A DNA stretch of 60,958 bases from Candidatus Nomurabacteria bacterium (GCA_016196605.1 JACPXJ010000045.1:1-60958), one strand, 5' to 3'; positions 13,508 to 59,570 are shown, counted from the stretch's first letter. Numbers and translations are program-made. Notes: generated by a model from the sequence alone, not told the origin.

Positions 13508-13541
13508 GTTTACTATACTGACGGCCGTCATTGTGGTAAAC
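13508..13541. promoter_or_regulatory. 34-nt palindromic site downstream of the PaaX-like gene and upstream of the ITPase gene
   Basis: gtttactat-actgacggccgtcatt-gtggtaaac. Inverted copy of 12870-12903. Confidence 0.5.
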
Positions 13542-13584
13542 ATTTTATATAAACATTTTGGTGTTATAATAAAGCTATAATACA

Positions 13585-28093: not shown

Positions 28094-28103
28094 ACTGTTT
28101 TCT

Positions 28104-28137
28104 ATCTAAGATTCTAGCATATGCGAGAAAGTCAGAT
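28104..28137. promoter_or_regulatory. 34-nt partner site 3' of the PaaX-like gene
   Basis: atctaagattctagcatatgcgagaaagtcagat. 28104-28124 is 18/21 reverse-complementary to 27464-27484. Confidence 0.45.
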
Positions 28138-28402
28138 ATGGAATTTTAATGAGATTTAATGACTAGAAAAGAAAAATTATCGATTTTCCATAATCCCCAA
28201 ACTGAGGTTGACAAAAAAACCTCATTAGTGTAGGGTACTTTTGATTCACTGATTGAGTAACGGATGGAATCTTAGTGTTATACGGTGCTTATATTACTAG
28301 GGTTTTTAACTTAATCATATCTAAATAATTTTAAGAAGCTAAAGAAAAGTAATTTCTCTATTTTTCTTTCGTTTTTTTAACTTATCGCAGATAAATGCAA
28401 AT

Positions 28403-38683: not shown

Positions 38684-39364
38684 ATGAACAGAGATAATAT
38701 TTCAGTTGATGAGTATTACCATATTTATAATAGGGGAGTAGGTAAAAAGATAATTTTCAAGGACGACAGAGATAGGATCCGTTTCTTGTTTCTTATTTTG
38801 TATTTTCAAGCAGAAAATAACTTTCCACAAATTTCGAGAATTATATCCTCTTTTGTCAAACATCGAGTGTTTGACATTGATAATAAAATTATAAATAATA
38901 TAATCTCGAAAAGATTTGTCGAGTTGGCAGGTTTTGCTCTGGTGTCTAACCACTTTCATCTAATTGTTAAAGAAGCAAAAGAGGGTGGTATTGGAAAATA
39001 TATGCAAAGGGTTTTGAATTCTTATACAAAATATTTTAATACTCGTTATGGAGTTACGGGGCATCTTTTTGAAGGTCCTTATAAAGCGGTTCATGTTGAA
39101 GACAATGAACAGTTGTTGCACCTTTCCGCTTACGTACATCTAAATCCGCGAGAATTAAGCGAATGGAGAAAGAGGGAAGATAGCTTTCCTTGGTCAAGCT
39201 ATCAAGATTATGTAAAAGAAAATCGTTGGGGATATCTTCTGAAGAATGAAATTATCGTTGAGCAGTTTAGAAATAAAAAAGAATATAAAGATTTTGTCGA
39301 AACCAGTGGCGCAAAAGAGCTAGAAGAGGAGCTTGCTATAGACTGTCAAACATCGGGTGTTTGA
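38684..39364 (+). CDS. REP-associated tyrosine transposase-like protein (IS200/Y1 HUH family), RAYT-1
   Basis: YHIYNRGV N-terminus, HUH motif SNHFHLIV, conserved GHLFEGPYKAV and catalytic-Tyr region LSAYVHLNP. Confidence 0.75.
   Translation: MNRDNISVDEYYHIYNRGVGKKIIFKDDRDRIRFLFLILYFQAENNFPQISRIISSFVKHRVFDIDNKIINNIISKRFVELAGFALVSNHFHLIVKEAKEGGIGKYMQRVLNSYTKYFNTRYGVTGHLFEGPYKAVHVEDNEQLLHLSAYVHLNPRELSEWRKREDSFPWSSYQDYVKENRWGYLLKNEIIVEQFRNKKEYKDFVETSGAKELEEELAIDCQTSGV
38854..38876. repeat. S-type REP copy inside the RAYT-1 coding sequence
   Basis: tgtcaaacatcgagtgtttgaca. Translated as FVKHRVFDI. Confidence 0.75.
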
Positions 39365-44660: not shown

Positions 44661-45314
44661 ATGATTGGAGATATTGCTCATGTATGCAACAGGGGAGTTG
44701 AGAAGCGAAAAATTTTCATTAATGAGAGTGATTATTCTAGATTTGTGAACAATTTACTTTTGCTGAATAATAAGGAGGGTAAAATCAGAACGCGCAGGAA
44801 AAATCCGTTTGAAGAAGTCGAGGAAGTTTTACATGGCAGGAAAAAGTTGGTGGAAATACTCAAATGGAGCTTGTTGCCTAATCATTATCATTTATTGTTA
44901 TATGAAGTTGCTGAAGGCGGTATTTTAGAATTTACGAAACGTTTAGGCAATGCTTATACAAAATATTTTAATATTAAAAACAGCGGCAGAAGCGGATATT
45001 TATTTCAGAACAGTGCAAAAATAATTCCAGTCTCAAATAATAGCCAATTTCTTTATATACCGATTTACATCGATCTTAATTGTGCTGATCTAACATATCC
45101 AAATTGGAAAAATTCAAAAAATAACGATTCGAAGAAAATCATAAATTTTTTGGAATCGTACATGTGGTCAAGTTTTAGAGATTATTTTGGGAAAGGTGAG
45201 TTTTCGGCTGTCGTCAATAAAGAACTATTTTACGATTTGTTTGATACCAATGAGAAAGAATACAAAAAAGATATGGAAGGTTTTATCAGAGAACCAATCG
45301 TTCAAGATTTCTAA
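44661..45314 (+). CDS. REP-associated tyrosine transposase-like protein, RAYT-2
   Basis: HVCNRGV N-terminus, HUH motif PNHYHLLL, GNAYTKYFN...GYLFQNSAK, and a Tyr-containing IYIDLN region. Confidence 0.7.
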   Translation: MIGDIAHVCNRGVEKRKIFINESDYSRFVNNLLLLNNKEGKIRTRRKNPFEEVEEVLHGRKKLVEILKWSLLPNHYHLLLYEVAEGGILEFTKRLGNAYTKYFNIKNSGRSGYLFQNSAKIIPVSNNSQFLYIPIYIDLNCADLTYPNWKNSKNNDSKKIINFLESYMWSSFRDYFGKGEFSAVVNKELFYDLFDTNEKEYKKDMEGFIREPIVQDF

Positions 45315-46703: not shown

Positions 46704-47750
46704 ATGCTCGAAAAACTTTACAAATTAATATCGAACGACATCGGCATTGATCTGGGCACTTCAAATACCTTGGTATATCTCAAAGGTCACGGCATCGTGA
46801 TCAACGAGCCGTCGGTGGTGGCGGTCAATCAGAAGACCAATCAGGTAGTGGCTGTCGGAGGCAAGGCAAAAGAGATGCTCGGGCGCACTCCGGGGCACAT
46901 CAGGGCGGTGCGCCCCTTGGTAGACGGCGTCATCTCTGATTTTGAAGTTACCGAAGAAATGCTTTCCTACCTCATCAACAAGGCGGATAAAATGTCGAAG
47001 AAGCTGGCGCGGCCCCGAGTGCTCGTTGGCGTACCGACTTCGACGACCAATGTGGAGACGCGGGCGGTCTATGATGCGACCCGATCGGCGGGCGCGAGGG
47101 AAGTATTCTTAGTAGAGGAGCCGATGGCGGCCGCTATCGGCGTGCGCCTCCCGATCAAAGACCCAGTCGGCTCGATGATCATCGATGTCGGCGGGGGAAC
47201 GACGGATATAGCGGTGATCTCTCTCGGCGGAGTCGTAAAATCGAAGAATCTGAAGATCGCCGGCGACCGGCTGAATAACGACATCATTACTTACATGCGC
47301 GATGAATTCAAGATATTGATCGGCGATCGGACCGCAGAAACGGTCAAAATAGCCATTGGTTCCGTTATTGAGGGTCCTTATATGGAGACGGAAGTGCATG
47401 GACGCGATCTTCTGACCGGTTTGCCGCGGGCGGTGGTGGTGACGGATGCGGATATTCGCGAGGCGCTTTCATCCTCGATTAAGGGGCTGGTAGACGGGGT
47501 CAAAGATATGCTGGAGACGACTCCGCCGGAAATTCTCTCGGACATCATGCATCGCGGCATCACTCTCTCCGGAGGGGGAGCCCTGATACCCGGGCTTGCC
47601 GAGCTTCTACAGCGGGTTCTCAAGATTCCGGTTTATGTGGTGGAAGACCCACTTACGGCAGTTGCGAGGGGGACTGGGATAATTCTCGACGACCTTCCTT
47701 TTTATAAAGAAGTTTTGATCGGCAATCAGGATGAGCTACCTCCTAGATAA
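46704..47750 (+). CDS. mreB: rod-shape-determining protein MreB
   Basis: DIGIDLGTSNTLVY, EPMAAAIG, IDVGGGTTD. ATG at 46704 preferred over the TTG at 46680, which lies inside the REP. Confidence 0.93.
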   Translation: MLEKLYKLISNDIGIDLGTSNTLVYLKGHGIVINEPSVVAVNQKTNQVVAVGGKAKEMLGRTPGHIRAVRPLVDGVISDFEVTEEMLSYLINKADKMSKKLARPRVLVGVPTSTTNVETRAVYDATRSAGAREVFLVEEPMAAAIGVRLPIKDPVGSMIIDVGGGTTDIAVISLGGVVKSKNLKIAGDRLNNDIITYMRDEFKILIGDRTAETVKIAIGSVIEGPYMETEVHGRDLLTGLPRAVVVTDADIREALSSSIKGLVDGVKDMLETTPPEILSDIMHRGITLSGGGALIPGLAELLQRVLKIPVYVVEDPLTAVARGTGIILDDLPFYKEVLIGNQDELPPR

Positions 47751-48537
47751 GAAAACTAAACAGAAAAAATTTCTTCGCATAGGCCTAGCGGTCGTCCTTC
47801 TTGTTGTCCTGTTTTATTTTCGTTCCGGGATTTTCGGCGGCCTCTCTAGTGTTGCCCATGTTGTTTTTCGTCCTGTATTAATTTTAGGCGAGAGTATAGG
47901 AGAAAAAATAAAAAACATCGGGAATTTCTTTGCTTCCAAGAATTATTTAGAGGATAAGATAGAGAATCTAGAGTCAAAAATATCCGAGGGGGAGGGAAGA
48001 ATATCCAATTACAATTCTATTCTTGCGGAGAATCTTTCTTTGAAGGAAATTCTTGGCAGAAAAAATTTGAAAACCGAGATGATTCTCGCTGCGATTTTAG
48101 CGAAGCCGAATCAGAGTCCCTATGACACTCTCTTGATCGATATCGGAGTGAACGAGGGAGTAGAAAAAGGGGATATGGTTTTCGCGCTTATGGATGTTCC
48201 GCTTGGGGTTGTTTCTGAAGTTTACGCGAATACTTCAAAAGTGATTTTATTTTCATCAGCAGGCGTCAAAACGCAAGCGATAATCGAAAAAAATATTTTT
48301 GTGGAGCTTGTCGGGCGGGGCGGGGGCAATTTTGAAATGATATTGCCGAGAAATTTTACTCCGGAGAGGGGCGACGAGGCGGTGATCCCCGGCATCATGC
48401 CGTATGCGCTGGGAGTAGTCGAGACGATAATTTCCGATCCGCGCGATCCCTTTGTCAAAGCTCTGCTCGTCTCTCCCGTCAACATCCAAGAACTCAAATT
48501 CGTGCAAGTGGAGAGGTCCCGAGATCAGCCGAGATAG
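47731..48537 (+). CDS. mreC: rod-shape-determining protein MreC
   Basis: N-terminal TM helix, coiled coil, and beta domains (GDMVFA...GVVSEV, GDEAVIPG...LGVVETI). Overlaps the mreB end. Confidence 0.85.
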   Translation: MSYLLDKKTKQKKFLRIGLAVVLLVVLFYFRSGIFGGLSSVAHVVFRPVLILGESIGEKIKNIGNFFASKNYLEDKIENLESKISEGEGRISNYNSILAENLSLKEILGRKNLKTEMILAAILAKPNQSPYDTLLIDIGVNEGVEKGDMVFALMDVPLGVVSEVYANTSKVILFSSAGVKTQAIIEKNIFVELVGRGGGNFEMILPRNFTPERGDEAVIPGIMPYALGVVETIISDPRDPFVKALLVSPVNIQELKFVQVERSRDQPR

Positions 48538-48570
48538 GTTTATTTTTCGACCTATCTCGGCAGTTTTTTT
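48518..48570 (+). terminator. Z element copy 1, doubling as the mreC terminator
   Basis: ccgagatcagccgagatagg-tttatttttcga-cctatctcgg followed by cagttttttt. Supplies the last mreC codons (SRDQPR*). Confidence 0.7.
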
Positions 48571-48615
48571 ATCTCCTTCTCCTTTACAAGGAGAGGGTAA
48601 GGTGAGGTGAATTCT
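48571..48615. repeat. P element, intergenic
   Basis: atctccttctcctt-tac-aaggagagg-gtaaggtgaggtgaattctc. Confidence 0.8.
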
Positions 48616-48695
48616 CTAAGAACCTCCGATCTGAATTAGTCTGCGTTAGGTCTTGCCTAACGCATTACTCGAGTCTCTAAAAACATTACTTTGCC
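48585..48695 (+). repeat. degenerate relative of the X element (X3)
   Basis: The 3' part cgagtctctaaaaacattactttgccttcgc is about 26/30 identical to 57595-57624. The P-element tail can pair with it if G-U pairs are allowed. Contains the inner hairpin gcgttagg-tcttg-cctaacgc. Confidence 0.4.
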
Positions 48696-48767
48696 TTCGC
48701 AATATTAAGCTGGAGATTTATTTTTTGAACAAACCTTCCTAAACCATTTTCTATTATCTTTTTCTTG

Positions 48768-48811
48768 CCGAGATCAGCCGAGATATCTTGAAAACAAAGA
48801 ATATCTCGGTC
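48768..48811 (+). repeat. Z element copy 2 (left boundary of the giant-gene segment)
   Basis: gccgagatcagccgagatatc-ttgaaaacaaaga-atatctcggtc. Confidence 0.8.
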
Positions 48812-48817
48812 ATTACA

Positions 48818-48917
48818 GCTAGGGCAGTATAAAAAGGGTACGCATAAAATTCTACTGAATTTTTGCGCTGGGTACGGCCTACCCGGCCTGCGTAGCCCCT
48901 TTTTATACTGCCCTAGC
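48818..48917 (+). repeat. X element copy X1 (about 26-bp outer stem, conserved core)
   Basis: gctagggcagtataaaaagggtacgc ... gcgtagcccctttttatactgccctagc. The core contains aaaattc-tact-gaatttt and tacccggcct. Confidence 0.75.
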
Positions 48918-48943
48918 TTTCATAAATCTTGCATTACTAAAAA

Positions 48944-49056
48944 AAATCCCCGTTTTGACAAAAATTCTAGGAGTCGTATCAACCTGCTAAAGCAGTCCTG
49001 TCCTCATGGTCCTCGAGGGCGAAGGCGGGGGAATTTTTCGGTCAAAATGGGGATTT
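48944..49056 (+). repeat. Y hairpin (about 24-bp outer stem enclosing about 64 nt)
   Basis: aaatccccgttttgac+aaaaattc ... gaattttt+cg+gtcaaaatggggattt. One G-T position in the stem. Confidence 0.7.
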
Positions 49057-49065
49057 TGCTCTTAA

Positions 49066-49084
49066 CCGAGAATTACCGAGAAAG
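49066..49084 (+). repeat. partial Z-like direct repeat CCGAGA-N5-CCGAGA upstream of the giant ORF
   Basis: ccgagaattaccgagaaag. Confidence 0.4.
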
Positions 49085-49143
49085 CTGGAGTTATCCACAT
49101 ATCTTGCTACTTTTGCACTTGTTATCAAGGTATAATTAACACA

Positions 49144-52100
49144 ATGGATTCAGGTATATTTTCGCAAAATAATTCTAGTGAAAAAAAATATATCTCGACT
49201 AAGGAGGCGAGTATCCGTACGGGCTACTCCAAAGACTACATCGGGCAGCTCGCTCGGGCAGGAAAAATCGATTCCAAGAAAATTAATCGCGCCTGGTATG
49301 TGGAAGAAAGTTCGCTGTTTAGCTACAAAGACGTATCGGCTGAATTAAAGAAAGAGAATGGAAAAATTTTTGCTGAAGCAAATTCTCCTCTTGCGATTCC
49401 TCCCCTCCTTGTGGAGGAGGGGGTAAGGGGTGGTGATTCAGAAATTACCACCTCGCCCTTCGGGCACTCCTCCTTCATCAAGGAGGAGAGGGTAGCAGAA
49501 ATTTCCGATGTCTCTTCGGTTTTGAAAGTTTATCAGCACCAGCCGCAAAAAAATTATTTGGGCAAGCAAATTTTTTCAAAGTCGAGGGAGTTCCTCACCA
49601 TCGTCCTCACAGTCGGCGCGGCCGCGGGCATCATCTATGCGAATAATTTAAAACTCCCGAATTTTTTACAGGATTTTATCGGTCCGGAAAATTCTCAAAC
49701 TGCCAATACCATAGACTCCCTCAAAGATGCTTATGGGAATTTTGTTACCGATCCTGCGAATGCAAGCGTGAGCGAGAGTGTAGCGGTAAACATAAAGCAG
49801 GATGACTTGCTGAACGCTTACAAAAATTATCTAACCAAACCCGGGACCCCCTCTTCAATTCTCCCCCTTAACAAGGGGGAGAGGCCGAAGGCAGAAGGGG
49901 TAATTTCTTCTCTCCGCGCTGTCTCCCCGTCAATAAGCAATGCCAATCTGGTCTCCGCTATAAAAACTATTCTTGCCCAGAAAGAATTTCGGGATCAGCT
50001 TCGCGGACCGGAAGGACCACAGGGAGCATCGGGACTTCAGGGACCGCAAGGACCAACCGGAGTTCCTTCTATCTTTTCCATTCCCAGCGCGCCGACTGTC
50101 AACACTTTGGCTTATGTTCCCGCCACTGTCATTCCTCCCAATCCGTCGTCTAACTTTGCCGGCGCCACTTTGTTGGGAGCTACTAATCTATCTTCCGGCA
50201 GTTTTTCAACCACTACCGCCAGCATTGACACTTTGACGGTAAACGGGCAAGCCACCATTGGCGGAACATTAACAGTCACCGGCACGGCGACAATACCGAC
50301 CGTGGCCGCCACCGCTTCCACCACCGACACCCTCGCCGTGGGCGGGGGCTATGGCTCGACCGGAGCATCCATCTCGGCTATCGGCGACATTGAGGCGAAT
50401 GGCGCGCTCACTATAGACGGCGCTTCCACCCTGACCGGCTCGACAGTGATCGGCTCGGCCGCTTCGTCCACCACCACCATCGGCTCGACCACGACCCCGG
50501 GAGCGCTCACTTTGCGCGGAGCCACAACTTTGGATAATAATTTTTCGCAGACCGGCGCGAATACTTTCAGCACCGGCACGGGAGCGATCAGCCTAAACGG
50601 CGCGACCACGGTAACCGGCAGTAATACATTTGCAACCGGTACCGGCGCAGTCACGTTCAATAACGTCACCACAAACATCGCTTCTGACAATCCAATTATC
50701 GATCTTACTTCCGCCACGACGCTCTCTATCAACACCACGACTAACCGCCCGATAACCACCGGCACCGGACTCTTTACCGCCGGCGGCGATGTAACCATCG
50801 CCGGCACCACCGGCGCCACTCTCTCCGGTATCGGCGCGGGCATCACTTTCACCGGCACCGGCAATCACGACATCACCGCAAGTTCCGGTACTTTGCGTAT
50901 CGGATCAAATACCATCATCGGCAGTATCGAAGCGCTGGACGAAACGGTAGACATCGGCACGCCCGCTGTCCGTTTTGATAAATTTTACGCGAATGAAGTG
51001 AATGCGACGACCCTGGTCGGAACTATCACCGGAGGAAACTCCTCCGCCGAAACTTTCACCATCAATTCCGACAATGCCACCGCCGACACTGAAAATTCCT
51101 ATCTCTCTTTTGAAAGAGGCTCCAGCATTCCGAACGCTCTCCTCGGCTGGGATTCCACCAATGATGAGTTTGATTTGAATTCTGGGCTAAATGTTACCAA
51201 TACTATTGGATCAGCTGCGCATTTGCGACTGAGTTATGACGCTTCCAACTACAATAGTTTCACCACATCTTCGACCGGAGATCTGGCGATTAGTTCAACA
51301 GGTACCAATGGAAACATCACTTTAACTCCAAGCGGAACAGGCAAAACCGTCATCGCCTCAAACAGCACCTCATGGACGTATGCGTCCACAAATTTGACTC
51401 TGTCCACCCGCAGTAATGGCAGAGGATTGACGTTTGCGACCACGGATGCCAATGACTTCACCCTTTCGGTGTTCAGGAATTCAATACCGGCGGCGCCTAC
51501 AGGCATTACAGCGCTGGAATTTGAGGGGCTGGACGATGCCGGCGGATCAGTCGCTTATGGACAATTGACCGTTAATGCAACGGACATTGCCGCGGCCACT
51601 GTTACAGGAGAAATGGTGCTGTCGCTGGAAAAATCCAATGTGCATTCTCATGTTCTCCGTGTCCAACCAGCGACCATCCGGTTTTTCAATACTCGCACTA
51701 GCGATACCGTTTTCGAAGCGTTGCAACTCGACTGGACATCGAACATAGCGCGTATTTTCACTAATTATTCCGGCGGCGGTTCGGCGCGCGCTCTGCAACT
51801 TGGCGGCGGCGGCAGCACGCAATGGGAGTTTGCGGATGATGCGACCGGGTTCCGTCCGCTGACGGATGATTCGTCGTCCACTGGATTGCTTGGTACCACC
51901 ACGAAGCGAGTTTACCACGGGCGTTTTGGGACTGGCGGTGTGTGGATTGGCAACATGACGAGCGCGGCGGGTTTGCTCAATGTGCGTTCTTCAAGTGGCG
52001 GAACTTTTCGCGTCGACGCAACGTCCGGTGCGGCTTCTATTACGGACACCACCGCCTCCTCCTCCACCACCACTGGATCGCTCATCAACGCTGGAGGGTT

Positions 52101-55100
52101 TGGGAATGCGGGGGCGGCGTATTTTGGGGGAGCGTTGAATGTGGCAGGAACAACGGGTTCAACTTTTACTCCATCTGCTGCGGCAGATATGACCCATACC
52201 TTTACGTCCGCCAACGATGCAAACTTTGTAAGACTCTTTTTCGGACGTGCTTCGGCTACGGCTATGATTGGCGTAGCTGCAAGTGCCGCACAGTTTACGA
52301 CCTCGGATGTGGCGGGTGACCTGACCATTCGAAATGCTTCTGGCAAAATAAATTTCTCTAATGATGGTGGCATAACTACTGGAATGTCTTTGGGAGCTAG
52401 CAATCTTCTGACCCTCACCGCCGACCTCACCGTCACTGGTGGGAATGTGGGGGTGGGGACGGCGACAGTCGCATCACAGGCAATTCGTCTTGGTTCTACT
52501 GGGCTTACAGGGACAACTCAATATGGTATTGCCAATGTTATCGTGTTTGATAGTACGGTGGCGACTGTTGCAGCGCATGGAATTTATCTTGGCCAAAGAA
52601 CAGCGGCGACCCCTGGCACATTACCTGTAAGTGATTCTATCTTTATTGATGGGCCGACCATCGGATCTTCATCTGCTATCACAACCAACACCGGGTTGAG
52701 GATCGCCAACCAAGGCGCAACAGGCATCACTAACGCCTACGGCATAGACATCGCCGCACAGAGTGGTGCCGCGACAGTGAATGTGGGATTGAGGAATGCG
52801 GGGACGACGTTGCTTACCAATACTACAGCTTCAACCTCTTCGGCTACCGGAGCGTTGCAAGTTTCCGGCGGCGTTGGCATCGCGACGGCCGTCACCACAG
52901 CAACCAGCATGGGTCTCAATGTTGCCCATACTGGAGCCATCACCGGCACAGGATACGGAGGATATTTCAGCAAAACAGGCGCAAGCACGACCAATGTGGG
53001 GTTGTACGCCACCGCCTCGGGAGCCACCAACAACTACGCGGCTATTTTTGAAAGCGGCAATGTCGGTATCGGGACGACAGCGCCAAGCACGAAATTACAT
53101 ATCAGTGGAACTGGAAGTGGCACATATCTAAGAATAGAAGAGACTACGGCCGGTGAAGAAACCACGATTCAGTTGTTAGGTGACGCAACCAGAAAGAACT
53201 GGGAAATCGGCAAACAGCAAATAGGTAATGCTTTAACCTTTGCTTCTTCTACAGCAAATGGAGGTACGACTTTCACGAATTATAGGATGACTATTTTAGA
53301 TACAGGAGAAGTCGGCATCGGGACGACGAGTCCGGCGGGACTTCTCCACGTATCTTCCGACACCGTGGACTTAGGCAAAGGATATTTCACGCAAGCCAAC
53401 GCTTCCGCCGACAGCTTTGACTTCAACTTTAGAAAAGCGAGAGGCACGGGAGCCGTACCCACCGTCATCACCACTGCCGATGAACTGGGAGTTATCAACT
53501 TCACCGGCTACGGCGGAGCGGCCGGATACATTACCGGCGCCGCCATCAAAGGCATATCGAGCGGCACCATCGCCGACTCCAGAGTTCCCGGACAATTATC
53601 CTTCTGGACAGGCACCGACGCCGCGCCTTCTGTCTTGACGGAGAGAATGAGAATAGATAACGCGGGACAGGTGAATGTTTTGGCTACCACCGCCTCCACT
53701 TCCTCCACCACCGGCTCCCTCATCAACGCCGGAGGGTTTGGGAATGCGGGGGCGGCGTATTTTGGGGGAGCGTTGAATGTGGCAGGAACAACGGGTTCAA
53801 CTTTTACTCCATCTGCTGCGGCAGATATGACCCATACCTTTACGTCCGCCAACGATGCTAATTACGCACGCTTAAACATAGGCCGCGCATCAGCATCATT
53901 CATGCTTGGAGTGGCCGCTTCACTAGGACAATTTATCGCAACCGATGCGGCTGGGGACGCTGTGATTAGGACTCTGTCGGGGAACATCAATTTCTCAAAC
54001 GATGGTGGTGCAACACTGGGAATGCGGTTGGGGACGAGTAATTTGCTGACACTCGCTGGCGACCTCACTGTCACTGGCGGGAATGTGGGGGTGGGGGCGG
54101 CGACGAATTCAAGTATCGGCGTATTTGTCACTGGTGCGTCTCTGCTGAGCGGGGTTTCTCAGACTGGACTCTACAGTGACTCAACTTTCAGCAGTGCCGC
54201 TACCACATCTGCTCAGGCGGGACGATTTGAAGTCAGGACTGCAGCGGCTTCGTTTACTGTAACTAATGCTCGTGCATTGTTTCTCGTGGCTCCAACATTA
54301 GGGTCTGGTTCTGCTATTACGAACAACTATGGTATTCAGATACAGAATATGGGCGCGACAGGCGTTACCAATGCTTACGGCCTCGACATAGCAGCACAGT
54401 CCGGCGCGGCGACGACGAATGTGGGATTGAGGAATGCGGGGACGACGAGTCTGCTGGCCCAGCTTTCCGTTTCACTAGACCTAGCTTCCGATTATGCCGC
54501 CACTTTCTTCAACGATGGCAACAATGCCAACCGGAGCGGACTCTTGGTCAAAGCCGGCCTGGATGACAGCACCCTCGCCGGACCTTCCACCTTAATTGAT
54601 TTCCAAGACGGGGATGGCGGCGCGATCGGTTCCATTTCTTTCGGCTCTTCCGCCACCGCCTACAACACCACTTCCGATGAACGCTTGAAGAATCTAGTTA
54701 ATGAACAAACTACTTCTTCCCTTAACATCTTAAATCAAATCAAAATACATGATTTCACCTGGAAAGACGATGTCAGCAGCAATCTCTATACCGGAGTCTT
54801 CGCTCAAGAGCTCTACACTATCTATCCCCACGCCGTTACCAAGCCGATCAATCCTGCCGACAGCTGGATGGTGGACTATTCCAAACTCACTCCGGTCATG
54901 ATCGCTTCTATTCAGGAGCTGGATCTTACCCTAGAGGGACTGGAGGAGAGAGTGGCGGCCCTCGAAGAGGGCAGTCCTTCGTTGGGTTCAGGATCTTCGA
55001 GTATTTTAGACACGGTGAAAAACTGGCTCGCCTCTGCGGGGAACGGCATAACCGATATATTTGCCGGAACGCTTCACGTGACAAACCAGCTCTGCATCGG

Positions 55101-55536
55101 CAATACCTGCGTAAACGAAGCTCAGCTGCAGCAGATTCTGCAGAGTACTGGGCAAGCGAGCGCGAACAGTTCTTCTTCGACAAGCGGAGGGGGAAGCACA
55201 ACCGATACTACAGATACGACCCCCTCTGACTCCCCCTTAGCAGGTGGAGAGGAGACCCTCACCCCCGACCCCTCTCCATCTACGGATGGAGAGGGTGGCA
55301 AAGCAGTAGCAGAGCCGGGTGAGGCAGATCCTACAACCACGATTTCAGAAGAAACCACGACGACTCTCTCCGCCTCAGCTGAGGAGGGGGCCGCGCCAGA
55401 GGGCGGGCAAGCAGGGGGTGGTGATGTTACAACCACGGATTTGACTCTTTCGGCTGACTCAGGGCAAGCAAGCTCAACAGAGGCAACACCAACTCCGGAA
55501 CCAACTCCTGCACCTACCCCTGAAGTAACCCCGTAA
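49144..55536 (+). CDS. giant (2130 aa) membrane-anchored fibre protein: N-terminal HTH, TM helix, collagen-like triplets, repetitive T/G/S/A-rich region, S74-type intramolecular chaperone domain and a low-complexity tail
   Basis: HTH-like YISTKEASIRTGYSKDYIGQLARAGKIDSKKINRAWYV. TM helix FLTIVLTVGAAAGIIY. GPEGPQGASGLQGPQGPTGVP. Repeated GNVGIGTT motifs. TSDERLKN...VFAQELYTIYPHAV...VDYSKLTPVMIASIQEL. Confidence 0.85.
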   Translation: MDSGIFSQNNSSEKKYISTKEASIRTGYSKDYIGQLARAGKIDSKKINRAWYVEESSLFSYKDVSAELKKENGKIFAEANSPLAIPPLLVEEGVRGGDSEITTSPFGHSSFIKEERVAEISDVSSVLKVYQHQPQKNYLGKQIFSKSREFLTIVLTVGAAAGIIYANNLKLPNFLQDFIGPENSQTANTIDSLKDAYGNFVTDPANASVSESVAVNIKQDDLLNAYKNYLTKPGTPSSILPLNKGERPKAEGVISSLRAVSPSISNANLVSAIKTILAQKEFRDQLRGPEGPQGASGLQGPQGPTGVPSIFSIPSAPTVNTLAYVPATVIPPNPSSNFAGATLLGATNLSSGSFSTTTASIDTLTVNGQATIGGTLTVTGTATIPTVAATASTTDTLAVGGGYGSTGASISAIGDIEANGALTIDGASTLTGSTVIGSAASSTTTIGSTTTPGALTLRGATTLDNNFSQTGANTFSTGTGAISLNGATTVTGSNTFATGTGAVTFNNVTTNIASDNPIIDLTSATTLSINTTTNRPITTGTGLFTAGGDVTIAGTTGATLSGIGAGITFTGTGNHDITASSGTLRIGSNTIIGSIEALDETVDIGTPAVRFDKFYANEVNATTLVGTITGGNSSAETFTINSDNATADTENSYLSFERGSSIPNALLGWDSTNDEFDLNSGLNVTNTIGSAAHLRLSYDASNYNSFTTSSTGDLAISSTGTNGNITLTPSGTGKTVIASNSTSWTYASTNLTLSTRSNGRGLTFATTDANDFTLSVFRNSIPAAPTGITALEFEGLDDAGGSVAYGQLTVNATDIAAATVTGEMVLSLEKSNVHSHVLRVQPATIRFFNTRTSDTVFEALQLDWTSNIARIFTNYSGGGSARALQLGGGGSTQWEFADDATGFRPLTDDSSSTGLLGTTTKRVYHGRFGTGGVWIGNMTSAAGLLNVRSSSGGTFRVDATSGAASITDTTASSSTTTGSLINAGGFGNAGAAYFGGALNVAGTTGSTFTPSAAADMTHTFTSANDANFVRLFFGRASATAMIGVAASAAQFTTSDVAGDLTIRNASGKINFSNDGGITTGMSLGASNLLTLTADLTVTGGNVGVGTATVASQAIRLGSTGLTGTTQYGIANVIVFDSTVATVAAHGIYLGQRTAATPGTLPVSDSIFIDGPTIGSSSAITTNTGLRIANQGATGITNAYGIDIAAQSGAATVNVGLRNAGTTLLTNTTASTSSATGALQVSGGVGIATAVTTATSMGLNVAHTGAITGTGYGGYFSKTGASTTNVGLYATASGATNNYAAIFESGNVGIGTTAPSTKLHISGTGSGTYLRIEETTAGEETTIQLLGDATRKNWEIGKQQIGNALTFASSTANGGTTFTNYRMTILDTGEVGIGTTSPAGLLHVSSDTVDLGKGYFTQANASADSFDFNFRKARGTGAVPTVITTADELGVINFTGYGGAAGYITGAAIKGISSGTIADSRVPGQLSFWTGTDAAPSVLTERMRIDNAGQVNVLATTASTSSTTGSLINAGGFGNAGAAYFGGALNVAGTTGSTFTPSAAADMTHTFTSANDANYARLNIGRASASFMLGVAASLGQFIATDAAGDAVIRTLSGNINFSNDGGATLGMRLGTSNLLTLAGDLTVTGGNVGVGAATNSSIGVFVTGASLLSGVSQTGLYSDSTFSSAATTSAQAGRFEVRTAAASFTVTNARALFLVAPTLGSGSAITNNYGIQIQNMGATGVTNAYGLDIAAQSGAATTNVGLRNAGTTSLLAQLSVSLDLASDYAATFFNDGNNANRSGLLVKAGLDDSTLAGPSTLIDFQDGDGGAIGSISFGSSATAYNTTSDERLKNLVNEQTTSSLNILNQIKIHDFTWKDDVSSNLYTGVFAQELYTIYPHAVTKPINPADSWMVDYSKLTPVMIASIQELDLTLEGLEERVAALEEGSPSLGSGSSSILDTVKNWLASAGNGITDIFAGTLHVTNQLCIGNTCVNEAQLQQILQSTGQASANSSSSTSGGGSTTDTTDTTPSDSPLAGGEETLTPDPSPSTDGEGGKAVAEPGEADPTTTISEETTTTLSASAEEGAAPEGGQAGGGDVTTTDLTLSADSGQASSTEATPTPEPTPAPTPEVTP
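49396..49496. repeat. P element inverted pair (tails facing inwards), in-frame in the giant ORF
   Basis: cctcccctcc-ttgt-ggaggaggggg-taaggggtggtgattc aga aattaccacctcgccc...ctcctcctt-catc-aaggaggag. Confidence 0.75.
49847..49905. repeat. P element, in-frame in the giant ORF
   Basis: accccctcttc-aat-tctccccctt-aac-aagggggaga-ggccgaaggcagaaggggt. Translated as TPSSILPLNKGERPKAEGV. Confidence 0.8.
52093..52220 (+). repeat. 128-nt block identical to 53731-53858 (internal duplication of the giant ORF)
   Basis: ggagggtttgggaatgcggggg...gtccgccaacgatgc read identically at both places. The offset is 1638 nt (in-frame). Confidence 0.85.
53731..53858 (+). repeat. second copy of the 128-nt identical block
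   Basis: See 52093-52220. Confidence 0.85.
55218..55299. repeat. P-like elements in the C-terminal tail of the giant ORF
   Basis: gaccccctctgactccccctt...; cctctccatc-tac-gatggagagg. Translated as [27 protein letters not shown]. Confidence 0.6.
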
Positions 55537-55580
55537 TAATTTGTTAGGATTTTCGGCATAGCTATGGTAAAATACAAAAT

Positions 55581-55844
55581 ATGAAAAATTTGAGAAACCA
55601 AAATTTAACATTTTCGATAATTGTTGAAAAAGACAACAACGGCTATTTTGCTGAGTGCAGGGAGCTTCAGGGATGCTATACAGAGGGTAAAACATACGAA
55701 GAAGCGATAAAAAATATCAAAGAAGTTATCGAACTCCACATCGAAGATAGAAAAGAACGCGGGGATTTTAAGGTTCTGCAAAATCAAAAAGATCATGTTT
55801 CTCTAACTACTTTTTCTATCTCTGTGCCGCAGTATGTCTCCTAA
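55581..55844 (+). CDS. hicB: HicB-family antitoxin
   Basis: FSIIVEKDNNGYFAECRELQGCYTEGKTYEEAIKNIKEVIELHIE (UPF0150/HicB fold pattern). Confidence 0.85.
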   Translation: MKNLRNQNLTFSIIVEKDNNGYFAECRELQGCYTEGKTYEEAIKNIKEVIELHIEDRKERGDFKVLQNQKDHVSLTTFSISVPQYVS

Positions 55845-56061
55845 ACAAATACCCAAAAATTGCAAGCAGTTAATAACCTTAGCGGAAAAAGCTGGTTTTG
55901 TGTTTTCTCGTCAGAAAGGATCGCATATGATTTTTTACCATGAGAGAGGTCTTAGGTTAACTATTCCAAATCATGGAACAAAGGCTCTGCATCCAAAAAT
56001 AGTGAAAAGCGTTTTAAGAGACATTGAAAATGCAAGCTTATTTACTCACGACGAAGTTTGA
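55834..56061 (+). CDS. hicA: HicA-family mRNA interferase toxin
   Basis: LITLAEKAGFVFSRQKGSHMIFYH...LTIPNHGTKALHPKIVKSVLRDI. Overlaps hicB by 11 nt. Confidence 0.85.
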   Translation: MSPKQIPKNCKQLITLAEKAGFVFSRQKGSHMIFYHERGLRLTIPNHGTKALHPKIVKSVLRDIENASLFTHDEV

Positions 56062-56107
56062 AACTAAGTTTTGTAGTTGTTAGATCTTGCCTTACAATTT
56101 TAATACA

Positions 56108-56151
56108 GCCGAGATATCTTTAAAAGACAAGCTATCTCGGCTGATCTCGGC
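56108..56151 (-). repeat. Z element copy 3, inverted (right boundary of the giant-gene segment)
   Basis: Reverse complement gccgagatcagccgagatagc-ttgtcttttaaag-atatctcggc matches 48768-48811. Confidence 0.8.
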
Positions 56152-56167
56152 GTGGAAAATTCAAAAG

Positions 56168-56197
56168 TCCCCTTGATAAGGGGGATTTAGGGGGTTA
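56168..56197. repeat. partial P element, intergenic
   Basis: gtcccctt-gat-aaggggga-tttagggggtt. Confidence 0.6.
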
Positions 56198-56208
56198 TAT
56201 TTGAATCA

Positions 56209-57534
56209 ATGCATTTTGAGATAAAGAAAAAACTAAAGAATAGTCTCGGTCGCGCTGGAGTTTTAACCACAGCTCATGGAGCCATAGAAACTCCGGCCTT
56301 TGTCTCAGTTGGCACAAAAGGAACAATAAAATCTCTAAACCCAGAGCAGGTAAAAGAAGCTGGAGCGCAGGTAGTTCTTGCGAATACTTATCATTTATAT
56401 TTGCAGCCCGGAGACGAGCTGGTGCGGGATGCCGGCGGACTGCATAAATTTATGAATTGGCCGGGACCTCTCATGACCGACTCCGGCGGCTTCCAGGTTT
56501 TTTCTCTCGGCGCGGCTTATGGCAAGGATGTCTCCAAGATAATACCCCTACCCAACCTCCCCCTTAATAAGGGGGAGGAGAAAGGAGGGGGTCCGGAACG
56601 TTTTGACGATTCGGCTGCCCCTCGTTTGGCAAAAATCGGGGCTGATGGCGTTTCCTTTAAATCGCACCTTGATGGTTCTATTCATTACATTACTCCGGAA
56701 AAATCAATCCAGATCCAGCACAATCTCGGCGCGGATATAATTTTCGCTTTTGATGAAGCCACCAGTCCAGCGGAGGATTACAAATATCAGGAGGAAGCTC
56801 TTGCCCGCACTCATGCTTGGGCGAAGCGAAGTCTAGAACATCATCAGAAATTATGTTTCACGCCAGAAGCTTTCTTTTCGGGGTCGCCATTTTCCTGCTG
56901 GAAAATTTGGCTCCATCCTCAGCTCGCCAGCCTGCGGAGACCCCGCAAAGAAACTTCTGTCGCTTCACATCCTGCGCTTTTTGGCATAGTTCAGGGCGGA
57001 CTGGAGAAGAATCTGCGCAAAAAGTCAGCGGAATATATCGGGAGCCTGCCTTTTGATGGCTTCGGCATCGGCGGCTCATATACCAAGGAGCACATGGAAG
57101 TAGTGGTTAAACTCGTAAATGAAATCCTGCCGGAAGAAAAGCCTCGCCACCTGCTCGGCATCGGCGAGCCGGAGGATCTTTTCATGGGCGTGGAAAATGG
57201 CGTGGATCTTTTCGACTGCGTGGCGCCGACTCGTCTCGGCAGAAACGGAACTATTTATACCCACCAAGGAAAAATGATTATTATGAATAAAGAATTTAGA
57301 AAAGATTTTAATCCCATCGAGTCTGATTGCAGTTGCTACACTTGCAAAAATTATACTAGAGCATATGTTGCTCATTTATTTCACGGCAAAGAAATGCTCG
57401 CTGGGACTTTGGCTTCAATCCACAATTTATATTTCATCGTCAACTTGGTGAAAAATATCCGGCAATCTATTCTCGACGAAAATTTTTTCGAATTTAAGGA
57501 GGAGTTTTTAAAAAATTACAGGAAGGTAAAGTAA
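56209..57534 (+). CDS. tgt: queuine tRNA-ribosyltransferase (with two repeat-derived insertions)
   Basis: TPAFVSVGT, LANTYHL, LMTDSGGFQVFSL, ALFGIVQGG, GFGIGG, CxCxxC Zn site (CSCYTCKNYTRAY). Confidence 0.93.
   Translation: MHFEIKKKLKNSLGRAGVLTTAHGAIETPAFVSVGTKGTIKSLNPEQVKEAGAQVVLANTYHLYLQPGDELVRDAGGLHKFMNWPGPLMTDSGGFQVFSLGAAYGKDVSKIIPLPNLPLNKGEEKGGGPERFDDSAAPRLAKIGADGVSFKSHLDGSIHYITPEKSIQIQHNLGADIIFAFDEATSPAEDYKYQEEALARTHAWAKRSLEHHQKLCFTPEAFFSGSPFSCWKIWLHPQLASLRRPRKETSVASHPALFGIVQGGLEKNLRKKSAEYIGSLPFDGFGIGGSYTKEHMEVVVKLVNEILPEEKPRHLLGIGEPEDLFMGVENGVDLFDCVAPTRLGRNGTIYTHQGKMIIMNKEFRKDFNPIESDCSCYTCKNYTRAYVAHLFHGKEMLAGTLASIHNLYFIVNLVKNIRQSILDENFFEFKEEFLKNYRKVK
56543..56594. repeat. P element, in-frame in tgt
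   Basis: acccctacccaa-cctccccctt-aat-aagggggagg-agaaaggagggggtcc. Translated as IPLPNLPLNKGEEKGGGP. Confidence 0.8.
56864..56959 (+). repeat. X element copy X5, in-frame in tgt (96 nt)
   Basis: Arms cagaagctttcttttcggggtc / gagaccccgcaaagaaacttctg. Core attttcc-tgc-tggaaaat...tcgccagcctgcg. Translated within CFTPEAFFSGSPFSCWKIWLHPQLASLRRPRKETSV. Confidence 0.75.
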
Positions 57535-57623
57535 TATTTTAAAGCACGTATAATTTTCTGCTGAAAATTTACTCCGTCTCGGTTACCCGCCTCCGAAGTC
57601 TCTAAAATATTACTTTACCTTCC
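57521..57623 (+). repeat. X element copy X2 at the tgt stop codon (perfect 21-bp arms, 61-nt core)
   Basis: ggaaggtaaagtaatatttta ... taaaatattactttaccttcc, followed by tttttt. Core aattttc-tgct-gaaaatt...ctcggttacccgcctccgaag. Confidence 0.8.
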
Positions 57624-57676
57624 TTTTTTACTTTACTTTCTTTACTTAGCTGTTATATACTAAACAAATTAAAGAA

Positions 57677-59090: not shown

Positions 59091-59570
59091 ATGAATCAAA
59101 AAATTTTAATAAGTTTTGCTCTTGTAGTTATTTTTATACCCTTATTTTACTTGACTATTTACCCAAGTGGTCAACCTGGCAGGTTGACCACTACCAGTTA
59201 CTACGTAAAGATTGCCGGGCAGAATATCAAAGTGGAAATTGCCGACACACCAGACAAACAAGCGCAAGGACTTTCCGCAAGGCAAGGCCTTTCAGAAGAT
59301 GAGGGAATGCTGTTTGTTTTTGAAAATGCCAGCGTGTATCCGTTTTGGATGAAAGATATGAAGTTTGCAATTGATATAATTTGGTTGAATGAGGATAAAG
59401 AAGTGATTTATATAAAGAAAGATGCGCGGCCCGAGCTTTTTCCGGAAACTTATGGCCTCAAGAATGAGCAAGGGGAGTCCTTGCTCACGAAATATGTGCT
59501 GGAGGTTGTCTCTGGATTTTCTGAAAAAAATAATCTGAAGGTGGGGGACAGGGCGGAATTTTCGTATTGA
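59091..59570 (+). CDS. DUF192-family protein (signal-anchored)
   Basis: ADTPDKQAQGLSARQGLSEDEGMLFVF...PFWMKDMKFAIDIIWL. Start at MNQKIL preferred over the ORF-track start at 58986. Confidence 0.7.
   Translation: MNQKILISFALVVIFIPLFYLTIYPSGQPGRLTTTSYYVKIAGQNIKVEIADTPDKQAQGLSARQGLSEDEGMLFVFENASVYPFWMKDMKFAIDIIWLNEDKEVIYIKKDARPELFPETYGLKNEQGESLLTKYVLEVVSGFSEKNNLKVGDRAEFSY
59166..59192. repeat. R-type REP, in-frame in the DUF192 gene
   Basis: agtggtcaacctggcaggttgaccact. Translated as SGQPGRLTT just after the signal anchor. Confidence 0.85.

Follow-up and report, generated by a model that had tools for sequence, protein, structure and literature searches.

We consider it an even bet that three hairpin-forming repeats around a giant fibre gene, here called Z elements, are operator-type clusters of a CCGAGAT box for a winged helix of the Xis/BldC type, that the box is a cis signature of such fibre genes, and that the clusters belong to a block inserted between mreC and tgt. 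A preliminary description of this DNA had offered protein-binding sites as one of several options, with the N-terminal helix-turn-helix of the giant protein as candidate binder; this option is the best supported, since the box is kept upstream of HTH-headed giant genes in five other genomes and the head has an Xis/BldC-type fold. The following features of the window (the whole stretch of DNA analysed, 60,958 nucleotides) define the block and its flanks:

47731..48537, plus strand: mreC, the left flank (Pfam MreC), with its last 6 codons (RSRDQP R*) within Z1
48518..48563, plus strand: Z1, boxes at 48519 (+), 48529 (+) and 48554 (-); left edge of the inserted block
48576..48612, no strand: P-element palindrome, CTCCTTCTCCTTTACAAGGAGAGGG..GGTGAGG, homologous to the entire mreC-tgt spacer of L029
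48767..48810, plus strand: Z2, boxes at 48768 (+), 48778 (+) and 48803 (-); hairpin without a T-run
56108..56151, minus strand: Z3, boxes at 56109 (+), 56134 (-) and 56144 (-); right edge of the inserted block
56165..56201, plus strand: P-element palindrome, CCCCTTGATAAGGGGG, which gives a TTGATA -35 followed by a TATATT -10, a leaderless tgt promoter
56209..57534, plus strand: tgt, the right flank (Pfam TGT), 100% identical to P0001

The insertion was evident from synteny. In two related lineages (L029-31 and L039/40) mreC lies immediately before tgt, at a distance of 0-56 bp, and the backbone is otherwise collinear; because of this adjacency, the block from Z1 to Z3 (48518-56151) is an insertion into the ancestral mreC-tgt junction, for which both lineages provide the empty site. 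The comparison proposed in the preliminary description thus found the two genes adjacent where the segment is absent. Homology of mreC stops at 48517, exactly where Z1 begins, and the end of Z3 lies 57 bp from tgt, so that of the two segment edges first proposed, Z2 and Z3, the right one stands and the left one moves to Z1. Likewise, Z2 and Z3 do form the inverted repeat described (51 nt, 76%), but the best pair is Z1 and Z3 (49 nt, 80% complementary), which bound the inserted DNA as terminal inverted repeats. The final mreC codons come from Z1 as had been suggested: orthologous MreC proteins end in ...FVQVE plus 1-2 residues, and the protein encoded here in ...FVQVERSRDQPR*. The closest relative, L027, has another giant gene at this mreC-tgt site and no Z there.

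Base composition contributed little to the case for insertion. The enclosed coding DNA had been judged GC-rich, which is true of the giant ORF (0.53 compared to 0.42-0.48 for most genes) but not of hicBA (0.36, with deviantly low GC3). The excess in the giant ORF is confined to codon position 2 (0.556 compared to ~0.34), while its GC3 of 0.54 falls inside the window range of 0.40-0.63; the high GC is therefore due to amino-acid composition and fails as an argument for an inserted cassette. The two genes at the right edge carry the domains of a HicAB toxin-antitoxin pair and overlap by 11 nt; in the short HicB, Pfam recognised the HicB/UPF0150 fold alone and no separate DNA-binding domain:

55581..55844, plus strand: hicB-like antitoxin, 87 aa (Pfam HicB_lk_antitox, PF15919, E 5e-8)
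55834..56061, plus strand: hicA toxin, 75 aa (Pfam HicA_toxin, PF07927, E 2e-16)

Repeats at the edges of inserted DNA raise the question of recombination. It is quite unlikely, in our judgement, that a recombinase encoded elsewhere acts on Z1/Z2 and Z3 as recombination sites at the ends of a 7.4-7.6-kb cassette that can be mobilised or inverted, with the Xis-like head in a directionality or architectural role and hicBA for an addiction module. The repeats lie exactly at the insertion edges, Z3 being the mirror image of Z1 and Z2; the fold of the head is of the type found in excisionases, whose direct-repeat targets adjoin att sites; at one edge there is a toxin-antitoxin pair of deviant GC; and the different giant gene in L027 suggests a hotspot. 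Pfam scans, however, found no recombinase or transposase in the segment, as first reported, and no integrase, invertase or DDE transposase among the ~50 ORFs of the 61-kb window, where candidates are limited to two IS200/RAYT-like Y1 genes that lie outside the segment with other cognate hairpins. No convincing target-site duplication was found at the block ends, a 5-bp GTGGA at loose offsets having a chance probability of ~3-4%. Searches of genome, metagenome, viral, phage, plasmid and protein collections turned up neither another copy of the cassette nor anything closely related to it, the best homologue of the giant protein being 39% identical over 25% of the length. The inverted arms are separated by a 16-nt spacer, unlike the core sites of tyrosine and serine recombinases, and homologous genes elsewhere have boxes at the promoter end only. 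Since the promoters of the giant gene (49066-49136) and of hicBA both lie inside the segment, inversion would switch nothing, which, together with the lack of an invertase in the window, speaks against the invertible segment proposed earlier. With no recombinase in the window, no convincing target duplication, no other copy in the collections searched and a promoter inside the block, a transposon or an invertible switch is a weak reading; what survives of the inserted cassette is the insertion, supported by synteny, and not Z as its enzymatic ends.

The Z elements themselves point to the box as the conserved unit. The 44-nt repeats of the preliminary description are real, although Z2 starts at 48767 and not at 48768, and the window contains three such elements, each with CCGAGAT boxes and a hairpin. 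A search with GCCGAGATCAGCCGAGATA allowing ≤3 mismatches matched at 48518 (plus strand, 1 mismatch), 48767 (plus strand) and 56133-56151 (minus strand), with no further match elsewhere in the 61-kb window and 0.01 expected by shuffling. The full layout is [G/C]CCGAGATcagCCGAGATA-16 nt-TATCTCGG, in which two head-to-tail boxes at 10-bp spacing are followed 16 nt further on by a single box in inverted orientation, which completes a stable hairpin (-> -> 16 nt <-, convergent). Between copies the boxes are 26-27/27 identical and the 16-nt loops only 3-8/16, which suggests that the box sequence itself is constrained and that neither recent duplication nor mere pairing accounts for the pattern.

Folding of the three Z elements is stable (-25.8, -15.9 and -21.1 kcal/mol; z-scores -6.3 to -3.9), and beyond the boxes each copy lengthens its stem with compensating bases of its own (GGT/ACC, TCTT/AAGA and CTT/AAG), features that support an action of Z at the RNA level only, as terminator or insulator hairpins that keep mreC and tgt apart from a very long gene under separate regulation. 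Z1 is indeed the mreC terminator that had been described, a textbook intrinsic one with a 13-bp hairpin followed by T7 (48564-48570), but neither Z2 nor Z3 is followed by a T-run, leaving Z1 as the sole canonical terminator among them. Moreover, hairpin function leaves both the extra unpaired 5' box and the strict conservation of the stem sequence unexplained, and in other genomes the same box forms unstructured direct repeats upstream of promoters, which makes a purely RNA-level role very unlikely.

Z could also be another small mobile palindromic (REP/MITE-like) family, spread perhaps by a Y1/RAYT-type enzyme, with its position and terminator use as by-products. The genome is hairpin-rich, and two other hairpin families bracket the inserted RAYT-like genes (GTGGTCAACCTGsCAGGTTGACCAC at RAYT#1, GTCAAACATCgggtGTTTGAC at RAYT#2); three blocks of the window, RAYT#2, RAYT#1 and Z1 to Z3, are missing from L039/40, and each lies between its own hairpin pair. 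The hairpin upstream of RAYT#2 is laid out like Z, with an extra direct 5' arm and then the hairpin, the mreC stop codon was overwritten by Z1, and other palindromes lie in-frame in tgt and also within rpoB, smc and DUF192. We nevertheless regard this origin as unlikely. Like REP/RAYT and REPIN sequences, Z elements are short conserved intergenic hairpins that sometimes serve as terminators in DNA that also encodes RAYT-like genes with hairpins, but they flank neither RAYT-like gene and lack a conserved 5' GTAG-type tetranucleotide. All three are confined to one locus among the ~55 intergenic regions in 61 kb, and exact 18-mer scans of ~186,000 species genomes and JGI metagenomes gave no match. 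Their box sequence is kept while their loops have diverged, and their arms are those of an operator box whose position at the promoter is constant in five other genomes, which is unexpected for a random REP family.

The operator reading of Z gains most from the promoter of the giant gene, which lies downstream of two large hairpins, neither of which matched Rfam:

48812..48923, no strand: X1 large hairpin (27-nt arms, 93% complementary, -62 kcal/mol, z -9.1)
48943..49057, no strand: Y large hairpin (22-nt arms, -47.8 kcal/mol, z -5.3)
49066..49082, plus strand: putative promoter-proximal operator, CCGAGAAttaCCGAGAA, two degenerate head-to-tail boxes
49094..49102, plus strand: TCCACATAT, invariant across six aligned promoters
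49131..49136, plus strand: -10 hexamer TATAAT, 7 nt ahead of the ATG in a leaderless layout

The operator was assigned by alignment to the CCGAGAT repeats of L032, L033, L034, L036 and L038, and spans roughly -78 to -62 relative to the ATG of the giant gene, which is also the putative transcription start. It corresponds to the remnant first described as CCGAGA-N5-CCGAGA; the remnant is present, but its spacing is N4 (49066-49081, 10-bp period). No -35-type match, and hence no sigma-70-type -35/-10 pair, was found at this promoter, which fits activator dependence.

In those five loci, from other Patescibacteria, 2-3 direct copies of CCGAGAT recur every 10-11 bp, always at the same place upstream of a leaderless promoter that is itself conserved, and the giant genes encode the same HTH_17 head. 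Judged from these sequences, the box is conserved across the giant-gene family. Six upstream regions of HTH-headed giant genes, from different genomes and neighbourhoods, align with 70% mean column identity and share the layout [inverted ATCTCG]-N5-6-[CCGAGAT]-N3-4-[CCGAGAT] (x2-3)-GTTTTTnGTTnTCCACATAT-~37 nt-TATAAT-7/8 nt-ATG. Within 150 bp upstream of seven homologues from outside the window, exact CGAGAT hexamers numbered 11 compared to 0.34 expected (Poisson P ~1e-13). A fixed distance from the promoter in six genomes argues for transcription control rather than recombination. L035 and L034 also have box clusters just within the 5' coding region. Against the operator reading, L035 and L037 lack upstream direct repeats despite similar heads. 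The promoter modules are arranged <- -> -> (divergent), unlike the convergent Z, and no Z-type triple-box hairpin was seen 3' of giant genes in other loci. In the window, the promoter-proximal boxes are degenerate (CCGAGAA).

Direct repeats of this period can be bound by more than one kind of protein. Tandem repeats with a period of 10-11 bp are the targets of OmpR-family regulators (PMC5859096), and one OmpR/PhoB-type response regulator is encoded in the window at 3897-4571. That an unrelated direct-repeat binder of this kind uses the boxes as operators is the least probable reading of all, because its gene is unlinked to the giant gene, whereas the head, and a small MerR-like gene in 8/8 other loci, are physically linked to the boxes. 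The small gene is divergent from and adjoins the giant gene in those eight loci and is absent from this contig; its product likewise resembles BldC and Xis.

The operator reading further depends on the head of the giant protein, whose parts are, in order, the HTH_17 head, a linker, one transmembrane segment, a collagen-like G-X-Y run, a repetitive fibre containing a 1638-bp internal duplication in the gene, an S74 chaperone and an acidic tail:

49144..55536, plus strand: giant fibre gene, 2130 aa, from HTH_17 head to acidic tail
49189..49326, plus strand: N-terminal HTH_17 winged helix, aa 16-61, candidate box binder
49591..49641, plus strand: single hydrophobic segment FLTIVLTVGAAAGIIYA, aa 150-166, with K/R residues just before it, as read from the translation
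54673..54837, plus strand: Peptidase_S74 intramolecular chaperone, aa 1844-1898, E 5e-9

The hydrophobic segment following K/R residues suggests that the head is cytoplasmic and the remainder outside the cell, while the S74 domain, which has an established link with trimeric fibres, suggests a trimer. Within the window an HTH_17-type head was found in the giant ORF only; among family members Pfam HTH_17 matched 11/11 heads, which share 44-64% identity with 18 invariant positions. An AlphaFold2 model of the head gave a b-a-a-b-b-a winged helix (pLDDT 77), for which Foldseek returned Pukovnik Xis (rmsd 1.4), BldC (rmsd 1.7) and also RdfS, RacA and TraN; the probabilities for Xis, BldC, RdfS and RacA were 0.95-1.0 with weak E-values (0.07-0.5) for a 60-aa domain. 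As modelled, the head is an Xis/BldC-type winged helix with no dimerisation or effector domain.

Several known systems resemble this arrangement in part. Streptomyces BldC is a MerR-like monomeric winged helix that binds 2-4 head-to-tail direct repeats (PMC5859096; PDB 6AMA/6AMK). The head, a small MerR/Xis-type winged helix without dimerisation domain, superposes on BldC at 1.7 A, and its candidate targets, like the targets of BldC, are head-to-tail repeats of variable number about one helical turn apart. However, BldC is a free cytoplasmic protein of 68 aa and the head forms the first 60 aa of a membrane-anchored fibre of 2130 aa, the BldC box is AT-rich (AATTxxxxC) and not CCGAGAT plus an inverted box, and sequence identity between the two is only ~15%. 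Excisionases and other RDFs (lambda and Pukovnik Xis, RdfS, TorI) share the HTH_17-type fold, Pukovnik Xis best (1.4 A), and bind direct repeats cooperatively at the edge of inserted DNA, but here no partner integrase or att core was detectable. ToxR, TcpP and CadC also join a DNA-binding domain, N-terminal and cytoplasmic, through a single membrane span to an extracytoplasmic part, and their targets are direct repeats upstream of a promoter; their domain is an OmpR-type winged helix with a small periplasmic sensor, in contrast to HTH_17 with a collagen/S74 part of ~2000 aa outside, where autoregulation is predicted to be likely. Finally, phage tail spikes, tail fibres and endosialidases share the C-terminal Peptidase_S74, although here the gene is cellular and chromosomal, has no further phage genes around it and matched nothing in phages, and we know of no phage fibre with a DNA-binding head of this kind.

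What we infer about the identity of the binder, the sign of regulation and looping or tethering is as follows. CCGAGAT would be the cis-regulatory signature of giant surface-fibre genes with an HTH_17 head in Patescibacteria, bound head-to-tail by an Xis/BldC-type winged helix. The simplest candidate would be the giant protein's own head, and the small MerR-like protein of the other loci would be an equally plausible binder. Binding at the -78 to -62 pair would set transcription from the leaderless promoter without a -35, and the three perfect triple-box clusters at the block edges may be auxiliary high-affinity sites that, for instance, act as a sink, form a loop or tether the locus to the membrane. 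Z1 would also serve as the mreC terminator, since its inverted box makes a hairpin.

Heads of this class are numerous, with 7,623 cluster representatives ranging from double-head proteins of ~320 aa to fibres of 1,200-3,900 aa. Tentatively, and with more doubt than for the operators themselves, we propose an undescribed large class of Patescibacteria membrane proteins with a cytoplasmic Xis/BldC-type head, in which the giant-fibre heads are predicted to bind the CCGAGAT repeats of their own promoters and, in this genome, the flanking triple-box hairpins, making the fibre its own membrane-tethered transcription factor. If so, fibre assembly or host contact would be coupled to fibre expression, or the locus would be pinned to the membrane during insertion of the 2,130-aa chain, and the predicted trimer (collagen run and S74) would bring three heads to three boxes. 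The giant protein, named 'tail fiber domain-containing protein' by NCBI, and its contig each occur only once in the collections.

In the window the gene order runs proS, mreB, mreC, Z1, P, Z2, X1, Y, the 2130-aa ORF, hicB, hicA, Z3, a second P and tgt, followed 3′ of tgt by an Orn/Arg decarboxylase gene and then a DUF192 gene. Here Z1 to Z3 are hairpin elements built of CCGAGAT boxes, X1 and Y are large hairpins, and P is a palindromic element. The features at the locus are:

47731-48537, mreC
48518-48563, plus strand, Z1
48767-48810, plus strand, Z2
49066-49082, degenerate box pair CCGAGAAttaCCGAGAA
49144-55536, giant ORF, 2130 aa
55581-56061, hicB and hicA
56108-56151, minus strand, Z3
56209-57534, tgt

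The nearest available relatives are distant, with Tgt just 73–76% identical. In related loci without the segment, mreC adjoins tgt: in L039 and L040, which read dnaG-rpoD-dsbA-DUF378-GT2-...-tsf-rpsB-proS-mreB-mreC-tgt-OrnDC-DUF192, the tgt start is overlapped by the mreC stop, and in L029–L031 the mreC–tgt spacer is 56 bp, consisting of one P-type palindrome. Relative to the L039/L040 backbone the window has three extra blocks, namely two IS200/RAYT-like Y1 genes (RAYT#1, 44661-45314, and RAYT#2, 38684-39364) and the stretch from Z1 to Z3, which on this synteny is an insertion between mreC and tgt. Box clusters flank the inserted giant-gene block on both edges. Z1 itself is the left edge, because MreC orthologues end ...FVQVE plus one or two residues and the window frame continues into Z1, adding RSRDQPR; the last mreC codons do come from Z1, as had been noticed earlier. 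At the right edge, 57 bp separate the end of Z3 from tgt, and the P palindrome within them contributes the -35 to a leaderless tgt promoter. L027, the closest relative judged by Tgt, likewise has a giant S74 gene at the mreC–tgt junction. Its product has a signal peptide in place of the HTH head and has only the C-terminal 185 aa in common with the window protein (35% identity), and its gene is accompanied by two other genes, Z and hicBA being absent there. Since L027 carries a different giant gene at this junction, mreC–tgt is a variable site for fibre genes.

The preliminary description of three repeat elements, two of them bracketing the segment in inverted orientation, was accurate except that Z2 had been placed 1 nt off and the spacer of the degenerate box pair is N4 instead of N5. 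The motif GCCGAGATCAGCCGAGATA occurs three times in the window, all in these elements, against 0.01 expected. All three share the layout [G/C]CCGAGATcagCCGAGATA-16 nt-TATCTCGG, in which two 7-bp boxes stand head-to-tail, 10 bp apart, and a third, inverted box closes a hairpin (−16 to −26 kcal/mol, z-scores −3.9 to −6.3). The box parts are 26–27/27 identical among copies and the 16-nt loops just 3–8/16, each loop lengthening the stem with differing complementary bases. Z1 and Z3 form the best inverted pair (49 nt, 80%). Loop similarity between the Z3 hairpin core and Z2 slightly favours direct orientation, on data too weak to decide; the mirror symmetry of the boxes stands whichever orientation the Z3 core has. 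Of the three, Z1 alone has a T-run behind it and scores as an intrinsic terminator, in agreement with its earlier reading as the mreC terminator, a role that its hairpin would play independently of the box binding proposed below. A 17-nt motif, GTTAGGTCTTGCCTAAC, has two copies, left of Z2 and of Z3 (1/100 shuffles), and is possibly a chance match. Rfam gave no family match for Z, X1 or Y, only spurious miRNA-type hairpin matches far under threshold, and exact Z 18-mers found only chance matches, lacking the hairpin, in ~186,000 species genomes and JGI metagenomes.

The box recurs upstream of genes for related giant proteins. The HTH_17 domain at the N terminus of the window protein, here called the head, begins 10 of 23 distant homologues, with the consensus M..SLFF.NKKYISAKEAS.ITGYS.DYIGQLAR..KIDSK.I.R.WYV.EESLL.YK; homologue heads are 44–64% identical to that of the window, with 18 invariant positions, and 11/11 heads match HTH_17. 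We compared eight other HTH-headed loci, seven with DNA (L032–L038) and an eighth as a gene list, spanning at least three neighbourhoods (prfB, gatB and another). Each of the eight has, ~300 bp upstream of the giant gene, a divergent gene for a MerR-like protein of 78–96 aa:

L032 5383-5622, minus strand, small MerR-like gene
L033 2422-2658, minus strand, small MerR-like gene
L034 2427-2717, minus strand, small MerR-like gene
L035 2405-2647, minus strand, small MerR-like gene
L036 1921-2160, minus strand, small MerR-like gene
L037 1994-2230, minus strand, small MerR-like gene
L038 1899-2141, minus strand, small MerR-like gene

This partner is highly conserved (signature YITIKQASKILGV..LTLRNWDKNGKL, also YITIKQASKILGV.PLTLRNWDKNGKL.A.RHP.NNYRVYK) and a conserved motif of its own, TTAGCAAT..GTGGATAAGT, stands upstream of its gene. 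In the window, tblastn shows neither the gene nor a relic of it, and no ORF of ≥30 aa lies between Z2 and the giant gene; the partner may be encoded elsewhere in the source genome.

When aligned, the upstream DNA of five of the seven DNA loci (L032, L033, L034, L036 and L038) and of the window has 70% mean column identity and a common layout: an inverted ATCTCG, 5–6 nt, two or three head-to-tail CCGAGAT boxes with a 10–11-bp period, GTTTTTnGTTnTCCACATAT, ~37 nt, TATAAT, 7–8 nt and ATG. A TATAAT 7–8 nt before the ATG is a leaderless layout. The seven non-window genes have 11 exact CGAGAT hexamers in their 150-bp upstream regions, against 0.34 expected from the remainder of the same loci (P ~1e-13). 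In L035 the upstream repeats are absent and a cluster TTCTCG-N5-CCGAGAT-N25-ATCTCGG lies within the ORF, 215 nt in; L034 combines its upstream module with a comparable cluster in the ORF, and L037, of a divergent subfamily, has one box, beside the -10. The box is kept family-wide at a fixed promoter position, and the Z arms are thus the conserved box, a putative operator, of the giant-gene family. Covariation of head with box sequence was not usable, there being a single case each: L034 boxes read CCAAGAT with an essentially unchanged head, and in the L035 head an R of the wing is changed to D. As a separate observation, -10 hexamers 7–8 nt ahead of ATG, without a Shine-Dalgarno, occur in the window (49131-49146, 55566-55583 and 56196-56211) and at the L032–L038 giant promoters, an indication that these organisms often use leaderless mRNAs.

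The segment had also been read as a mobilisable cassette or an invertible segment. The cassette reading holds as far as an insertion with Z at its edges, and signs of a transposition or inversion apparatus are missing: Pfam scans of ~50 window ORFs found no integrase, invertase or DDE transposase, in line with the earlier impression that the segment has no recombinase or transposase gene, and a search for a target-site duplication at the block flanks gave just a non-significant GTGGA match. Inversion would change nothing, because the giant gene and hicBA both have their promoters inside the segment, and this, with the lack of an invertase in those scans, speaks against a switch. Nothing was found in support of either the transposon or the invertible-switch reading. 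Although the Z elements lie at the edges of an insertion, we think it very unlikely that they are recombination sites; their inverted arms are 16 nt apart, a gap unlike known recombinase core sites. Searches of viral, phage and plasmid collections gave nothing related to head or operator, and the best match to the giant protein covers one quarter of its length at 39% identity. An unlikely alternative is that the block arrived by a hairpin-based mechanism like that which moved the two RAYT blocks. Each of those blocks is bracketed by its own hairpin, and the hairpin upstream of RAYT#2 has an additional direct 5′ arm, giving a Z-like -> -> .. <- layout. That Z is an unrelated repeat is very hard to uphold, since the Z arms match the box conserved upstream of the family genes. 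Best supported is the reading of Z as protein-binding sites, which was among those first offered and which can be widened to a regulatory module conserved across a large, uncharacterised family of proteins. The locus shows that a "cassette" bounded by repeats may, in a reduced genome, be an insertion and yet no transposon.

The head itself is predicted to be of Xis/BldC type. Its AlphaFold model (pLDDT 77) is built as strand-helix-helix-wing-helix, like excisionase/MerR-type winged helices, with mycobacteriophage Pukovnik Xis as best structural match (rmsd 1.4 Å), BldC at 1.7 Å, and RdfS excisionase, RacA and TraN as other matches; Foldseek probabilities were 0.95–1.0, with E-values that are weak for so small a domain. 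Xis proteins oligomerise head-to-tail on direct repeats, beside att sites. The paradigm is BldC, a MerR-like winged helix that is monomeric and assembles head-to-tail along 2–4 direct repeats (PMC5859096). The direct-repeat binding that we propose for the boxes resembles that of both. The head is always linked in cis to boxes, and no window protein other than the giant ORF product carries it. The small MerR-like partner is an equally legitimate candidate binder, because it also resembles the CarH N-domain, Xis and BldC; an OmpR-type regulator (3897-4571) is a weaker candidate. In an exhaustive profile search the head turned up in 7,623 cluster representatives with a cutoff of E ≤ 1e-3, and in 4,037 with E ≤ 1e-10. 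The majority are ~320 aa long and carry the head twice in tandem, with a membrane span at the C terminus; giant fibres are a minority. Besides these very numerous ~320-aa proteins (P0145–P0293), P0125 also has the head tandemly duplicated (L032 6027-6324; 92% DNA identity).

The giant protein has a single hydrophobic span (aa 150-166) with basic residues just before it, a short collagen-like G-X-Y run, a long, repetitive body rich in Thr, Gly, Ala and Ser, and a Peptidase_S74 intramolecular chaperone (aa 1844-1898). The head would be cytoplasmic, held by the single membrane span, as in ToxR-like membrane-tethered regulators. Collagen runs and S74 domains form trimers, so three heads per fibre are probable. 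The head may bind the direct repeats at -78 to -62 and control transcription of its own gene, whose promoter has no -35 match; this model predicts two heads at the promoter site and three on each Z. The three perfect triple-box clusters could then be auxiliary high-affinity sites, serving titration, looping or the holding of the locus at the membrane while the very long product inserts. We give the operator explanation of the Z boxes about an even chance, and are less confident about which protein binds them.

The prevailing view has CPR/Patescibacteria living attached to host cells, and their giant surface proteins are foremost among the candidates for making this contact; to our knowledge, almost nothing is known of how these proteins are regulated. 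A conserved operator box, leaderless promoters of shared layout and a fibre that carries its own DNA-binding head make up a concrete regulation model, testable by EMSA and searchable by computation in thousands of genomes. Our literature search, of incomplete coverage, found no paper on the head, the box or the giant-gene promoter.

Base composition offers no evidence for foreign origin. The enclosed DNA had been judged GC-richer than its surroundings, which is true of the giant gene (0.53) and not of hicBA (0.36; GC3 0.29–0.36). Because the giant-gene excess is confined to codon position 2 (0.556 vs ~0.34 in other genes), with GC3 (0.54) inside the window's range, and the giant genes of four other loci depart from their flanking genes in the same way, we rejected foreign DNA as its explanation; the excess is driven by Gly/Ala/Thr/Ser richness. 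Tgt and the giant protein are each present a single time in the protein collection, and NCBI names the latter 'tail fiber domain-containing protein'. An internal tandem duplication of 1638 bp (546 aa) reaches at most 95% identity over 176 nt (52048-52466 vs 53686-54104; also 52714 vs 54352). Toxin-antitoxin pairs that differ in kind adjoin HTH-headed giant genes in three genomes: MNT/HepT (L038 7188-7806), MazEF (L032 3597-4171) and HicBA (window 55581-56061).

The genome is unusually rich in palindromic insertions, coding frames included. A nested family, CCTCACC..CCCTCTCCTTnnnAAGGAGAGGG..GGTGAGG / CCCCTTnnnAAGGGG, has 11 window matches against 2.3 expected. Copies in the window and at other loci include:

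48576-48612 and 56165-56200, intergenic
56557-56594, in tgt
49399-49491 and 49844-49908, in the giant ORF
55230-55293, 1265, 2341 and 36158, in other ORFs
L029 9944-10000 and L038 ~2180-2215, at other loci

One intergenic copy is the source of the tgt -35. The copy within tgt is a 9-aa in-frame insertion (PLNKGEEKGGG), not present in nine homologues, and resembles Rickettsia palindromic elements, which insert into coding genes. The two RAYT proteins are 28% identical. The RAYT#1 hairpin, GTGGTCAACCTGsCAGGTTGACCAC, lies at 44609 and 45315, with a half copy at 46663 and a copy at 59167-59191 within the DUF192 ORF, which there reads SGQPGRLTT, part of a weakly conserved linker past the membrane span; the RAYT#2 hairpin, GTCAAACATCgggtGTTTGAC, lies at 38632 and 39345. 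Perfect 19–20-bp palindromes within an rpoB-like ORF (28403-31612) and an SMC ORF, at 29028-29069 and 20321-20364, may be further in-frame hairpin insertions. Very stable long hairpins are X1 (48812-48923; −62 kcal/mol, z −9), Y (48943-49057) and a third at 57509-57635, which overlaps the tgt 3′ end, where the spacer is 80 bp longer than in L039; like X1 and Y, the third matches no Rfam family. Lastly, related palindrome pairs near two PaaX_M-domain genes (12911-13372 and 27431-28093) are likely operators: in the first pair, 12862-12911 ends at the gene start and 13507-13542 lies just past the gene end, before a Ham1-like gene, and in the second, 27450-27485 lies just inside the 5′ end and 28103-28138 just beyond the gene end.
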